Shown piece after piece: positions 55,185 through 64,000 of a stretch of DNA of 64,000 nucleotides. The DNA is from Prochlorococcus sp. scB243_498I20 (GTDB lineage: Bacteria; Cyanobacteriota; Cyanobacteriia; PCC-6307; Cyanobiaceae). The stretch spans positions 10,164-74,163 of the forward strand of contig JFMR01000114.1 of the NCBI GenBank assembly GCA_000635015.1, given 5' to 3'. The notes under the pieces are model-generated. The model did not search any database. It had not been told where the DNA came from and was given only the letters and a program-made list of their open reading frames with translations. Numbering within the stretch: position 1 is the first letter of the stretch; every line of letters begins with the position of its first letter. The position numbers and the translations under genes are program-made.

Positions 55185-55228
55185 AGCGGATGAAGAGATT
55201 CGAACTCTCGACATTCTCCTTGGCAAGG
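55185..55228 (-). repeat. 3' half of tRNA-Gly(GCC) (att junction)
   Basis: Reverse complement CCTTGCCAAGGAGAATGTCGAGAGTTCGAATCTCTTCATCCGCT; no D-arm or 5' acceptor strand upstream. Confidence 0.9.
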
Positions 55229-55546: not shown

Positions 55547-55888
55547 ATGCGTAAAAGAGCAACTAAACAAGAAATTGAATTAAGAGTTGCACATGCTGCT
55601 GAATTAGTTGCTGAAGGGCAGGCATATTCATCTATTACTTCCCATATTGCCGCAAAATATGGCATCTCAAGAAGAAGAGCCAGGCAGATCACTTCTAATG
55701 CTTATCTTTTGCTGAAAGATGATATTGAAAAAGGGGACTTAAATCGTCCTGAAATGACAGCAAAATTAGTATGTACTTTAGAAAATGCAATGTATAAAGC
55801 AATGCGAGAAAAACAATATTCTGCAGTTGCAAGTAATGCAAAAGTTCTTATGAAATTAATAGGGTTGGAAGCAAAAATAAAAAGTTAG
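55547..55888 (+). CDS. Mobile-element hypothetical protein with HTH (terminase small subunit-like, tentative)
   Basis: Predicted HTH (SHIAAKYGISRRRARQI) and C-terminal YKAM...A.VL.KLIGL helices; stop abuts tRNA-Pro fragment. Confidence 0.7.
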   Translation: MRKRATKQEIELRVAHAAELVAEGQAYSSITSHIAAKYGISRRRARQITSNAYLLLKDDIEKGDLNRPEMTAKLVCTLENAMYKAMREKQYSAVASNAKVLMKLIGLEAKIKS

Positions 55889-55889
55889 A

Positions 55890-55939
55890 GCGGGTGCTTT
55901 GGGAGCACTAGGTCGCAGGTTCGAATCCTGTCGCCCCGA
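55890..55939 (+). repeat. 3' two-thirds of tRNA-Pro(TGG) (att fragment)
   Basis: GCG-GGTGC-TTTGGGA-GCACT-AGGTC-GCAGG-TTCGAAT-CCTGT-CGCCCCGA; 5' acceptor/D-arm absent. Confidence 0.9.
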
Positions 55940-60540: not shown

Positions 60541-60822
60541 AAATATTGTTAATTGCACATTTTATAGATCGAATTTTCCAAAAAACTGTCAAACCTAAGA
60601 CCTAATTAACAGAGAGCACTATGTCGTAGAGAAGAGAGTCAACCGAGACACCCAAAATTCTATTAAAGATATTTTCTATTTCGATCAGAAACACAAATCA
60701 AAAAGGCATCGATTCATGCAGGCGAACCTTGGCTTACTACATCCAAGGCCAGCTTTATTCATTAGTAAAAGTATATATATTTTGAGAGCGTTTGCAACAA
60801 GTATTTCTAAGTCTTTTCTATT

Positions 60823-60842
60823 ACTTACCAACACTTACCAAC
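60823..60842 (+). repeat. Tandem 10-bp repeat ACTTACCAAC x2
   Basis: Seen directly, 12 bp left of site A copy 1. Confidence 0.65.
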
Positions 60843-60854
60843 ACTCATAAAAAA

Positions 60855-60876
60855 GGTGCAAGTAGCAAGCGTTTCA
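60855..60876 (-). repeat. Cassette site A copy 1
   Basis: + strand GGTGCAAGTAGCAAGCGTTTCA; TCA is the TGA stop of ORF 60874-61290. Confidence 0.85.
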
Positions 60877-61290
60877 TCTAGGAAGTATTCTATTTAATTC
60901 GGGATATTCAATTCTTAATTCTTCTATAAATGCATCAACGGTCTTTGATATCTCGTCAGTAGTATTCAAAATAGAATTTTTATATTTTAGATATTCGGAA
61001 ACTTGAAATAATTTCATAGTTGATTTTGTTAAAAGTAATGTTGCAAGAGGAGATTTATCTGCCAATTTAGTTGAAGGAAAATATTTTATAGTTTCAGGAT
61101 AAGTTTTTTCCATATCCTCAATATAGTCTTCTATCTTTTCATTTAATTCATCATATTTTGATGATAAAAACTTTTTGGTATTTAAATATTCAAAACCTGC
61201 GAATAAAAAACCAATAGGAAAACTTAAAAATAATATTGAAAGAGAAAGCCTAAGAAGATTTTGGGAAAATTTTTCCATAGAAATAATCAA
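60874..61290 (-). CDS. Hypothetical membrane-anchored protein (cassette ORF)
   Basis: One N-terminal TM helix, acidic helical domain. Confidence 0.7.
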   Translation of the reverse strand: MIISMEKFSQNLLRLSLSILFLSFPIGFLFAGFEYLNTKKFLSSKYDELNEKIEDYIEDMEKTYPETIKYFPSTKLADKSPLATLLLTKSTMKLFQVSEYLKYKNSILNTTDEISKTVDAFIEELRIEYPELNRILPR

Positions 61291-61394
61291 TTAAATTTAT
61301 TTAAAACATATCAAGGTTAAAAGTAAGTAAAGCATGTAATATTTTTGCTTTCTTCTTCCGATCTACTGAAATATTTAATTTTTATAATTTCTAT

Positions 61395-61408
61395 ATCGAC
61401 TGTCAATC
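61395..61408 (-). repeat. Cassette site B partial copy
   Basis: ATCGACTGTCAATC identical to part of 63048-63091. Confidence 0.75.
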
Positions 61409-61418
61409 GTATTTAATA

Positions 61419-61444
61419 TAGCGGTGCAATTAGTAAGCGTTTCA
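61419..61444 (-). repeat. Cassette site A copy 2
   Basis: + strand TAGCGGTGCAATTAGTAAGCGTTTCA; TCA is the TGA stop of ORF 61442-61837. Confidence 0.85.
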
Positions 61445-61837
61445 ATTTTTATTGTTAACTAATCCATAGATACATAAAAGAGGATTCACTATCAAAACAA
61501 TCCAGAAAGGAGGAGGGGGTCCTCCATCAACAATTGTCCCAGCGTTAAAAGTATTAAATAGAGCTACTGCCAAAAAACAAAACATCAAAGCTAATTCACC
61601 TGATAAAACTTTTCTTAAGGAGGCTTTATCTTTAATGGAACTACAAATAATCAATAAAAAACCTATTCCTAAATTACTAGCAGCTACAACATCTGCAGTA
61701 CCTCTAACAAGAAGCAATGTTTCACTTGAAGCGTTGCCTGCAATAGTTTCCACTGAAAAAATTAGTAGAGAAATAATTAACAACCCCAACAGGATATGAA
61801 GCGCTCCAGTAGTTTTTAAAATATTTTTTAACTTCAT
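61442..61837 (-). CDS. Hypothetical integral membrane protein, ~4 TM (cassette ORF)
   Basis: Four hydrophobic segments; GGPPPPFW motif. Confidence 0.8.
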   Translation of the reverse strand: MKLKNILKTTGALHILLGLLIISLLIFSVETIAGNASSETLLLVRGTADVVAASNLGIGFLLIICSSIKDKASLRKVLSGELALMFCFLAVALFNTFNAGTIVDGGPPPPFWIVLIVNPLLCIYGLVNNKN

Positions 61838-61882
61838 AAAAAAAGGAGCTTATTTCCCCCTTATTGTAGATCGACTGTCAAT
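61838..61882 (-). repeat. Cassette site B full copy
   Basis: AAAAAAAGGAGCTTATTTCCCCCTTATTGTAGATCGACTGTCAAT directly abutting the ATG. Confidence 0.88.
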
Positions 61883-61886
61883 TTAG

Positions 61887-61901
61887 AGTAGTAAGCGTTT
61901 C
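61887..61901 (-). repeat. Cassette site A copy 3 (truncated)
   Basis: AGTAGTAAGCGTTTC, 4 bp from site B. Confidence 0.8.
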
Positions 61902-62111
61902 GTTTAAAACAAAGTTCTAGTTTTTTCGTTTTTTTTCATTAACCTTCCACATTTTCTTGAACATATAATTTTTATGTTCATTGCAATACATTTAGCAGAA
62001 GTAATAATGCGTAAGTGTATATTAACTATACAGAATCCGTTCCAAAATTCTGTAGGTTTAAGGTCTTCCCTATCTTTCAACTCCTATTAATAGTTGAAAA
62101 TAAAAACCTAT

Positions 62112-62294
62112 TTACCACCACATACCGAGATTCAATTTTTTTGCATCTCTATTACATGCAAGCTCACACTCGTTTAACTCTTTGACTGAGAGAGCCTCAA
62201 GTATTCTTGCCATATCAATAGAAGATAGTTCTCCATTAACGTTCCACTTAAGTGTAGTTTTACGTTGAGGTGTGTTTTTTGTTTTTTTCATCAT
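62112..62294 (-). CDS. Small hypothetical protein
   Basis: 60-aa ORF, TLKWN..GELS.IDM.RIL...C.L.C pattern looks protein-like. Confidence 0.6.
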   Translation of the reverse strand: MMKKTKNTPQRKTTLKWNVNGELSSIDMARILEALSVKELNECELACNRDAKKLNLGMWW

Positions 62295-62442
62295 GACTTT
62301 TTAAGGTCGGGATAATTAAATAGCATGATTATTTAAAATTCTCAAATATTTATTGAGTAAAAGAGTATAAATTACCAAAAAAATGTGAAGTTTTTATAAG
62401 TTAAAGAATTAAATTTATTTATCAAGAATCTAGAAATTCAAT

Positions 62443-62468
62443 TAGCCGTGCAAGTAGTAAGCGTTTCA
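62443..62468 (-). repeat. Cassette site A copy 4
   Basis: TAGCCGTGCAAGTAGTAAGCGTTTCA immediately after the TAA at 62469-62471. Confidence 0.85.
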
Positions 62469-63047
62469 TTAAGGAAGATACTTATTCCTATTTATTGGTT
62501 CATTTTGGAGGATTCTCATGGCTTCTGGTGAGTTAGTAACTCCTATTATTGCGACCAAAATAACACCTAGTGCTAACAAGGCATATGCTCTCTGTTTATT
62601 TGCTTTTACCTTTCTAATACTTTCTTCTTCATAAACTTTCTTAAAATGAGCTTCCCATTTTTCAACAAAAGTAGGTTCAACTAACTTTTCATCAATTTCT
62701 TTATTTTTTGCCTCCGCTTCGCCATTAAATTTATTTTTAAATTCTGGGAAATCATTATGGCTTAAAGCCCATTATTTCCACGATGTCCATTCTTGTAATT
62801 GTGTTTGTTTTGCTTGACCTTGAATTAAAAAAGCGTCTCCGCCAACATCAGCACCTGCCATACCCGTAATTGCTCCAGCTATGGCTCCATCACGCCTGCT
62901 TGTATTTTTAGGAGGCCTTGCTTCTACATCATGTAATTTTAAAAATTCAACAACTATTACATCTAAACCAACTAAGGGAACTTTTTTTAATTCAGGATTA
63001 TCTCTGTAAATTCTGGTTAATTCAGATTGTTTCCATTCTTTAGTCAT
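62469..63047 (-). pseudogene. Hypothetical protein with in-frame premature stop (cassette ORF)
   Basis: Frame reads ...EWTSWK-TAA(62772-62774)-WALSHNDFPEF... and stays open for 100 more codons incl. a TM helix to TAA 62469. Confidence 0.75.
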
Positions 63048-63090
63048 AAAAAAGAAGCTAATTGCCCCTTATTGTAGATCGACTGTCAAT
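63048..63090 (-). repeat. Cassette site B full copy
   Basis: AAAAAAGAAGCTAATTGCCCCTTATTGTAGATCGACTGTCAAT; 26-bp core identical to 61857-61882; 6 bp from integrase stop, abuts ATG. Confidence 0.88.
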
Positions 63091-63096
63091 CTTAAA

Positions 63097-64000
63097 TTAG
63101 ACACCTACTTCAAAGGCATTTTTTTGATGTCTAGCAACAGCAGCTTCGATAGATGCTTCACTAGTCCAACGGCCGTAAAAATTTAAATGTGTTGCGGGTG
63201 TATGACCCATTGCTTCGGCGGCATCTCGAATTGAGATTGGATTATCACTAGCTTTGTGAGCTATCCAAGCCCATCTATGACGAAGGGAATATGGCGTTAA
63301 TCCTTTAGTCTTTTTAGCTATCTGTTTCCAAATAATTGTTCTATTTAATTGTTGGGTTAATGTTGCACCAACATCAGCAAATCTTCTCTTTTTCTGAACC
63401 ATCTTAATTTGATTTTCGATCGCTTCTGGAAGTCCAACTAAACCGCTTTTATATTGTGCTACAAGCTCATTTCCTAGCCCTTCTCTGCCCAATATATCTA
63501 GTGCAAATACTCTACGAGGTGGATTCTTTTTGCCCTTATTCTGGACGTTTTTCTTGATACTTCCGACAAATAATTTATTACCATCTCTTACTTCAAGAGT
63601 GGCTAATTCTGAAAGTCTTAATCCATGCAATGCGATCAATCCGACCGCTAAATATAACTTAGGATTTGTCGCTTTTAGTGTGTCTAATAATATTGCTAAA
63701 TCAGCGTCAGATATTGGTGGAGTTACTGTATCTTCTGTAGTTCTAGTATTATCTCCGACCAGTTCTTTAGCTAAGTCTTTATGGGGTGGAAACCATCTTT
63801 CACTCATACCGTGGCGGTTGACTCCATATTCAAGAATTTTATAAACGGAATCTAAATATCTTTTTCTAGAATCTGAACCCGATGGAATATCATCAAAGAA
63901 ATTTTTAGCGTATTTTTTGACAAAATCTTCTCCCGAAGTTGGTGTAGGTTTTTTATTCATTACTTCTCTAAATCGATCAACTCTTCTAGTCCACTCCATA
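63097..64000 (-). CDS. Tyrosine recombinase/integrase (5' end outside window)
   Basis: HGLRLSEL (Arg), PYSLRH, AMGH, FY catalytic tyrosine near C-terminus. Confidence 0.92.
   Translation of the reverse strand, partial: MEWTRRVDRFREVMNKKPTPTSGEDFVKKYAKNFFDDIPSGSDSRKRYLDSVYKILEYGVNRHGMSERWFPPHKDLAKELVGDNTRTTEDTVTPPISDADLAILLDTLKATNPKLYLAVGLIALHGLRLSELATLEVRDGNKLFVGSIKKNVQNKGKKNPPRRVFALDILGREGLGNELVAQYKSGLVGLPEAIENQIKMVQKKRRFADVGATLTQQLNRTIIWKQIAKKTKGLTPYSLRHRWAWIAHKASDNPISIRDAAEAMGHTPATHLNFYGRWTSEASIEAAVARHQKNAFEVGV

Follow-up and report, generated by a model that had tools for sequence, protein, structure and literature searches.

Why should genes with nothing in common stop at one and the same base of a short, repeated motif? 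The question is raised by a stretch of 64,000 nucleotides (nt) from Prochlorococcus sp. scB243_498I20, which we call the window and which corresponds to positions 10164-74163 of contig C114 (C114:10164-74163) in a genome of 1.59 Mb, 31% G+C and 167 contigs. Towards one end of the window, a motif which we refer to as site A recurs four times on the minus strand, and a second motif, site B, stands before several of the intervening genes. An earlier interpretation made from the letters alone (the sequence-only reading) held that cassettes are cut or joined precisely at site A, much as integron cassette open reading frames (ORFs) end within attC. Our analysis supports this proposal in part: the locus combines two known kinds of arrangement, coupled gene starts and cassette-like island arrays, such that the joint is real whereas the integron mechanism is not supported. 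We consider it fairly probable that site A is the start of signal-peptide genes, present mostly as stubs, which abuts upstream stop codons, and that units are exchanged through the short sequence shared at A and B.

Reading leftwards from position 63097, with every element on the minus strand, a tyrosine recombinase gene is followed by site B, a 192-codon frame, the fourth copy of site A (A4), two small ORFs, A3 and, 5 nt further on, another site B; the order then continues with orf2, A2, a 15-nt linker, site B, orf1 and A1. The window contains four exact 13-mers of site A, all of them here. The copies of site A and the genes they bound are as follows.

60855-60877, minus strand: site A copy 1 (A1), ATGAAACGCTTGCTACTTGCACC; a 10-codon stub from its own ATG, MKRLLLAPFL-stop
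61423-61445, minus strand: site A copy 2 (A2), TTGAAACGCTTACTAATTGCACC; stub (M)KRLLIAPLY-stop, then a 15-nt linker and site B
61887-61903, minus strand: site A copy 3 (A3), ACGAAACGCTTACTACT; without start codon and without TGA, site B 5 nt on
62447-62469, minus strand: site A copy 4 (A4), ATGAAACGCTTACTACTTGCACG; 15-codon stub MKRLLLARLIEFLDS-stop
60874-61290, minus strand: orf1, 138 aa, membrane-anchored, of no family
61442-61837, minus strand: orf2, 131 aa, multi-pass membrane protein, of no family
61904-62294, minus strand: unit bounded by A4 and A3, with small ORFs at 62112-62294 (60 aa) and 61904-62080 (58 aa)
62469-63047, minus strand: gene frame of the unit nearest the recombinase, 192 codons, with an internal in-frame TAA at 62772-62774

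None of the unit genes in the window has a significant match in Pfam or PHROGs. The motif TGA at 60874-60876 is the stop codon of orf1, and that at 61442-61444 is the stop codon of orf2; at A4, the motif TGA comes directly behind the TAA that ends the 62469-63047 frame, and at A3 the TAA of ORF 61904-62080 lies 1 nt before the position equivalent to the TGA. Every one of the four copies thus sits on a stop codon, and coordinates and sequence agree with the sequence-only reading, with two caveats: the 62469-63047 frame is interrupted by its internal TAA, and A3 has no TGA of its own but reads CGA there. Because relatives (e.g. locus L097, in which the frame is intact) carry Gln where the 62469-63047 frame has its internal TAA, the copy in the window is probably a pseudogene, or else the TAA is a sequencing error.

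We found that this placement of stop codons is a general property of site A. With at most one mismatch, A is present in 148 of 151 genomes of the genus, clustered in islands at about 5-30 copies each, whereas a reversed control pattern yields 0-2 copies per genome. By what lies upstream, the copies were sorted into 86 distinct families, and we called a family stop-adjacent if an ORF of 40 aa or more, running in the same direction, ends no more than 8 nt from A. Fifty families (58%) are stop-adjacent, against 3.1% of random positions in the same loci and 9.6% of ordinary first-ATG gene starts in this genome. One might suppose that stops fall beside the motif by chance in AT-rich sequence, where stop codons are plentiful, and the low G+C content of this genome agrees with that; however, given the excess over random positions and over the control pattern, we regard chance as ruled out, in keeping with the earlier judgement that the shared end point is hard to ascribe to it. 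Nor is the distance between stop and motif random across copies: among the 50 stop-adjacent families, 20 use the motif TGA itself (ATGA, offset 0) and 21 have a TAA at -4 (TAAATG), 41 of the 50 in total. ATGA overlap and TAAATG abutment are the two classic layouts of stop-start coupling. The shared end point of unrelated genes within the motif follows from the ATG of A, which overlaps or abuts the upstream stop; the sequence-only reading overlooked A as an ATG start with signal-peptide codons, and it is this start that explains the stop adjacency.

If site A supplied the stop, as had been suggested, homologs without A might be expected to differ at their C-termini. We found no such difference beyond one or two codons: orf2 homologs without A have the same TGA at the same codon, and orf1 homologs without A stop at a TAA or TAG no more than 1-2 codons from the same position. 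As homologs without A end at the same place, A neither cuts nor extends the upstream protein, but begins at the stop of that protein.

Read on the gene strand, site A is (TAA)ATGAAACGCTTACTACT[TC][GC]CACC, which encodes MKRLLL(A/P)…, and its logo is TAAATGAAACGCTTACTACT[TC][GC]CAC[CT]nCTA. In 77 of 87 families the base preceding the motif is A, which gives ATG AAA CGC TTA CTA C, and conservation runs on as T[TC][GC]CAC[CT]nCTA; the encoded start is MKRLLL[A/P][P/L]L, so that site A consists of a start codon and the first 5-8 codons (ATG AAA CGC TTA CTA CT..CA CC.). Among 117 non-redundant copies, the start position is occupied by ATG in 91, TTG in 11 and GTG in two. An ORF of at least 40 codons is opened by 33 of these copies; the other 84 (about 70%), like all four copies in the window, are stubs of 6-20 codons with frame lengths that peak at 10 and 7 codons, often with site B next, and in them the first 15-23 nt alone survive.

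The longer ORFs indicate what the motif begins. Proteins led by A in our genome (C45:268531) and in others (loci L025, L023, L032 and L031) have unrelated domains, namely PDZ, SdiA-regulated/beta-propeller and trypsin-like protease, and include a small membrane protein. Between the genes of unrelated A-led proteins, identity is 88-96% over nt 1-24 and mostly 74-85% over nt 25-63 (about 50% for one protein), and it drops right behind the predicted cleavage site, past the end of the signal peptide, to background (about 30%). Judged by eye against the textbook pattern, the encoded segment has the features of a Sec-type signal peptide: the n-region is positively charged, the core is hydrophobic, and the cleavage site is AXA-like. 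In this form, MKRLLLPLLAALALPTAVNA|, or in variants of it, the peptide heads the PDZ, beta-propeller and protease proteins. On this evidence we read site A as a coding start, and the piece encoding the signal peptide as a portable module common to unrelated secreted proteins, of which A is the best-kept 5' tip. Two other interpretations of the motif were set aside: on the opposite strand, a gene start (ATGCAAGTAGTAAGC…) opens mostly short frames of at most 25 codons with no evident gene, and a conserved micro-peptide at A is at odds with a frame and tail that vary.

Units meet at site A, and do so freely. When positions 60600-63100 of the window were compared by BLAST with 200 genomes of the genus, homology blocks had their limits at the outer ends of A and of B. 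Where 45 upstream bases are identical, orf1 leads through A into at least eight different sequences; at 99-100% identity it occurs in at least 12 genomes, with at least eight different downstream partners. Conversely, the form in which A, a linker and B follow one another is found behind at least 12 different genes, and for several pairs (upstream sequences U1, U4 and U8 with downstream sequences D1 and D2) all four combinations are present. Dozens of unrelated sequences are joined right behind A at +15 to +23, and both edges of the stub are sharp.

Whole units are also present or absent exactly at A, as in integrons, in at least six indels. At C45:268531 of our genome, A lies between a cupredoxin-like gene and the PDZ gene behind it; in another genome, 568 bp comprising a linker, B, an orf1 homolog and A lie between the same cupredoxin-like and PDZ genes, and this insertion is bounded by a 15-bp direct repeat of A, ATGAAACGCTTACTA. 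Five more A-flanked indels, of 475-1481 bp, include both B-led units and whole A-led genes for secreted proteins. Blocks are also shared between genomes: the block from A3 to A4 is 100% identical to a copy in one other genome, and a two-unit block of 1,028 bp, running between the outer ends of A1 and of the B before orf2, is 99-100% identical in about 12 genomes, where it has at least seven kinds of neighbour on the left and at least six on the right. As the core gene mutS is only 94-98% identical among these same genomes, the spread of the block is younger than the divergence of the lineages. In most of the 12 genomes the flanks that we retrieved contain no integrase, and within a 30-kb island stretch that has no integrase A/B units stand in both orientations. 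Comparison of sequences shows A and B to be the junctions of units that are reshuffled, gained and lost as wholes. The part of the earlier proposal that had units joined and separated at A accordingly stands, on the whole-unit indels, the free pairing of partners and the edges of the homology blocks; the attC mechanism is not supported, for reasons given below.

Site B, at the other edge of the units, is a near-palindrome, ATTGACAGTCGAT(C); in 149 of 168 contexts a TAnnnT hexamer stands at a constant distance behind it, and an ATG lies about 30-34 nt further on. In the window it is found at these places.

61395-61407, minus strand: site B core before the gene at 60874-61290, ATTGACAGTCGAT; a variant with a long leader behind the core
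61840-61882, minus strand: site B core with TAnnnT hexamer, small hairpin, T-run and ATG; leader of the gene at 61442-61837
63048-63090, minus strand: site B core with TACAAT, hairpin, T-run and ATG; leader of the frame at 62469-63047, starting 6 nt past the integrase stop

In appearance B is a promoter, its near-palindrome resembling an operator, with a 5' leader behind. A hairpin with a T-run is predicted in the leader in 121 of 168 contexts, compared with 61 for shuffled sequence, and in the commonest hairpin, pairing of the two arms on the gene strand depends on a G-U pair, by which a role of the leader as RNA is suggested. One gene was found behind two different types of B leader, and breakpoints thus fall also at the border between leader and ORF. 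In a recurrent form (C49:16119 of our genome, L020, L064, L070 and others), A (…CTTGCAT) is succeeded by an A-run and then a hairpin. What follows A there reads as a B-type leader in reverse complement; the ATG of this leader overlaps the end of A, no ORF lies behind it, and the form constitutes a head-to-head junction of module ends.

Upstream of B, site A is either intact or absent. It is present with 0-1 mismatch in 31 of the 168 contexts, and the other 137 are at background, with no decayed intermediates; the spacing from A to B is 23 nt in 24 of the 31 cases, and the linker between them varies in sequence and, from 5 to 27 nt, in length. These figures bear on the possibility that the A stub is kept for a function of its own, as a micro-ORF for termination and reinitiation, as an RNA signal at the 3' end, or as an upstream element or operator of the B promoter, with the joints being incidental. 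The bimodal presence of A before B would fit such a role, as would the better conservation of A than of the linker behind it, the start codon kept in coupling position by most stubs, and the peaks in micro-ORF length at 10 and 7 codons. However, the frame and tail of the micro-ORF are not conserved (some variants run on through B, others stop elsewhere, and a start is missing from copy 3), A is lacking at 137 of 168 B sites, and A shows no fold; in Rfam, neither A nor B has a match at E <= 1. We hold a retained function of this kind to be distinctly unlikely as the explanation of the array.

A recombinase gene stands next to the array, and the features that bear on its role are listed here.

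63097-64000, minus strand: 3' part of the tyrosine recombinase gene, a 445-codon ORF running off the window
60824-60844, minus strand: tandem GTGTTGGTAAG x2, directly behind A1
C114:74597-74617: tandem GTGTTTGTAAG x2, just upstream of the integrase ORF and just past the end of the window

An intact tRNA-Gly(GCC) gene lies directly beyond the recombinase ORF (C114:74676-74747), and an exact 44-nt copy of the 3' end of tRNA-Gly lies at 55185-55228 of the window; the intervening 9.3 kb or so contains phosphonate genes and the A/B units. Such an arrangement resembles the tycheposons, tRNA-targeting integrative elements of Prochlorococcus described in a preprint in which there is no mention of motifs like A or B (Hackl et al., preprint 10.1101/2020.12.28.424599). 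Because the tRNA-Gly gene adjoins it and the exact 44-nt tRNA repeat stands at the far end, we assign the integrase to a tRNA-Gly element of the tycheposon type, of which the A/B units would be cargo, and do not take it to be the recombinase of these units. The 428-aa integrase has no match to the integron-integrase model in NCBIfam, where its best hit is archaeal XerA at 36 bits (cut-off 220); its Pfam Phage_integrase score is under the cut-off, and family searches returned only generic integrase matches. The tandem GTGTTKGTAAG x2 occurs at only two places in the whole genome, which bracket the integrase and the four A/B units (about 3.6 kb), and may represent arm-type sites of the integrase or the ends of a smaller, inner element.

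That the array lies inside an element of this kind might suggest that A is itself a leftover attachment site, derived from a tRNA or transfer-messenger RNA (tmRNA) gene in the course of serial tycheposon integrations, as islands in this genus are known to accrete at tRNA genes (preprint 10.1101/2020.12.28.424599). We give this very little credence: the best match of the 23-nt site A to the tRNA genes found in this genome by ARAGORN has nine mismatches, which is at chance level, no tmRNA gene was found by this search, and the actual attachment site is the 44-nt end of tRNA-Gly. Two side observations may be added. Between phnZ and A1, positions 60700-60760 of the window have a 6-bp inverted repeat (CCTTGG…CCAAGG) and bases resembling GGTTCG; there is no Rfam match, and the repeat could be a degenerate fragment of an RNA gene or an old att site. 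On the plus strand at 55868-55932, a weak tRNA match (24 bits, under the Rfam threshold) agrees with the tRNA-Pro fragment to which the sequence-only reading drew attention.

A stronger challenge to our interpretation is that A and B together form one dedicated recombination site of about 50 nt, each contributing a half, which plays the part of attC, and that a recombinase encoded at an unlinked locus or borne on a tycheposon moves the single-gene units. Such a site would account for the precision of the unit indels and for their bounds at direct copies of A, for the sharp edges of the stub with many unrelated sequences joined directly behind it, for the all-or-none presence of A before B at a spacing that is mostly 23 nt, and for a block younger than the core genome. 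In addition, two different tyrosine recombinases stand directly before B-led units in the same orientation, one in the window and the other, of 390 aa, at locus L057 of genome G071, where it is followed by B and by the two-unit block of the window. However, A has neither the dyad symmetry of a recombinase core nor a spacer, and the composite is without a fold: the minimum free energy (MFE) of A-linker-B as single-stranded DNA is -2.1 to -2.8 kcal/mol on both strands, with z of +0.2 to +0.6 relative to shuffles. The integron cores RYYYAAC and GTTRRRY were sought at the unit boundaries, which read TAAATGAAACGC… and …ATTGACAGTCGATC, and neither is present. Instead of promoterless, co-oriented cassettes under one platform promoter, we found many units with B leaders of their own, and units on both strands in the 30-kb stretch that has no integrase; most genomes carrying the two-unit block likewise have none in the flanks. 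The linker varies from 5 to 27 nt, breakpoints fall also between the B leader and the ORF, the adjoining integrase has its own tRNA-Gly att, and no candidate enzyme was found. As a mechanism, the integron analogy of the sequence-only reading is not supported, on several of these grounds, and we consider a dedicated site unlikely, though it is the rival that deserves the most serious weighing.

A-led genes for secreted proteins have no leader of their own and stand in a stop-start coupling layout behind whichever gene precedes them, and island genes lie close together, with next to no spacer. We favour a passive process, in which A and B, the latter with its leader and the former with its piece of signal peptide, would be the only homology between unrelated units, with the consequence that exchanges, deletions and insertions would resolve inside A or B. 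Recombination through this short shared sequence might take the form of unequal crossing-over or slippage between direct copies, or of double crossovers with incoming DNA, and selection would then discard the products in which ORFs are broken. Short-homology recombination of this kind is the most likely mechanism, and several observations speak for it: A without dyad symmetry, a composite without a fold, a linker of 5-27 nt, units in both orientations where there is no integrase, and two B leaders for one gene.

A number of points weigh against this interpretation. Stubs, at about 70% of copies, outnumber real starts by more than two to one, which is many for mere relics. The intact-or-absent pattern of A before B suggests that A was homogenised, spread recently or is itself under selection. 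Each of the junctions behind A at +15 to +23 needs a non-homologous event in the past with its end just behind A, which plain homologous recombination fails to provide, and an identity of 15-23 nt is short for recombination of the RecA type. Tyrosine recombinases do stand directly before B-led units in two genomes. Finally, the promoter role of B is deduced from its sequence, and the near-palindrome could act as an RNA hairpin as well.

How far the modules extend is indicated by their distribution. Within the family, A is confined to genera whose genomes do not exceed 1.9 Mb, which we take to be the other Prochlorococcus lineages, and is absent from genera with larger genomes. The exact 50-nt string of A, linker and B was found in 27 named species representatives, 26 of which are single-cell or metagenome-assembled genomes of Prochlorococcus or other picocyanobacteria; the sole exception is a 2-kb contig binned as Flavobacteriales. 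In draft genomes many copies of A lie 60-300 nt from contig ends (e.g. G042:C19, G026:C2, G060:C190, G079:C201 and G049:C220); the repeated A/B modules seem to be places where assemblies break, and such genomes probably contain more arrays than are counted. We considered and rejected a phage promoter or phage-borne motif: among 2.9 million viral contigs, a 14-mer of B has 93 scattered matches and a 16-mer of A has 32, almost all of them single, which we judged to be about chance level and no enrichment. Only two of the matching contigs resemble fragments of an island, a tycheposon or a phage with host genes. At L160 (IMG/VR contig 3300006334_000917, 6.6 kb), three small, host-like, B-led genes stand in a row beside larger ORFs which are called phage-like on their N-terminal sequences, and B-led units may also travel in cyanophage genomes. 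Neither the motif strings nor the concept was found in the literature we searched, the coverage of which was incomplete and included the tycheposon preprint, a paper on Prochlorococcus non-coding RNAs and a 2025 preprint on recombination in the HLII clade.

Wild populations of Prochlorococcus differ chiefly in small sets of island genes. For the origin of single-gene differences between islands, below the scale of whole tycheposons, the papers we searched offered no explanation; across the genus, and in other Prochlorococcus lineages with small genomes, island genes are interspersed with A and B, which mark the points at which units are swapped. The two-unit block, spreading faster than the core diverges, provides a concrete and testable handle on the fine-scale remodelling of islands, and a single portable signal-peptide module is seen to recur, at the nucleotide level, in unrelated secreted proteins. 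In annotation, the dozens of 'ATG AAA CGC…' stubs in each genome should not be called genes. It is improbable, in our estimation, that these islands hold a gene-capture system of their own, based on a bipartite site in which A is the 3' end of one unit and B the 5' end of the next, with the recombinase encoded elsewhere. Were this so, A would double as a ready start codon and the beginning of a signal peptide, and any ORF joined to it in frame would become a coupled, secreted product; the most abundant phototroph on Earth would then possess what is in function an integron, though one made of unrelated components.

Compared with known systems, the array is integron-like in outcome, yet it fails each structural feature that was tested, namely an IntI-type integrase, the attC fold, core sites, and a single promoter with polarity. 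Like an integron array, it consists mostly of single-gene units parted by a short conserved site at or in which ORFs end; whole units are present or absent between strains at that site, and the same unit is found in many contexts. Unlike an integron array, it has no IntI-type integrase, its site lacks imperfect inverted repeats, a single-strand hairpin and a GTTRRRY core, many of its units have a promoter-like leader of their own in B, units stand in both orientations and away from any integrase, and the site itself is the coding start of a signal peptide. Repeats of the MITE or REP type are different again, in that A has no inverted repeat or fold and the ends A and B do not form an inverted pair. 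Tycheposons share with the window an element with a tyrosine recombinase beside tRNA-Gly, a 44-nt partial-tRNA repeat and nutrient cargo in the form of phosphonate genes; their joints are partial tRNAs, however, whereas A and B are not derived from tRNAs and split the cargo at the scale of single genes.

Phage morons are units of promoter, gene and terminator inserted between genes. The B-led units resemble them as self-contained, single-gene expression units lying between other genes, three of them in one contig from a viral fraction, but have no evident terminator at the 3' end and do have junction motifs common to the units. Translationally coupled genes (ATGA, TAAATG) have the same geometry as that seen in 41 of the 50 stop-adjacent families, with the difference that here the downstream cistron is a stub of 6-20 codons in about 70% of copies. 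A conserved 5' leader attached to unrelated or hypervariable bodies, with recombination in the part that is common, is familiar from orphan CdiA-CT/Rhs toxin modules, from the procA leaders of prochlorosins and from the signal sequences of conotoxins. Although the common segment is here the start of a Sec-type signal peptide, and the partners include B-led genes whose products are not secreted, the A-led genes are like these families in that a short 5' coding segment is common to them at the nucleotide level and that truncated orphans keep that segment alone.

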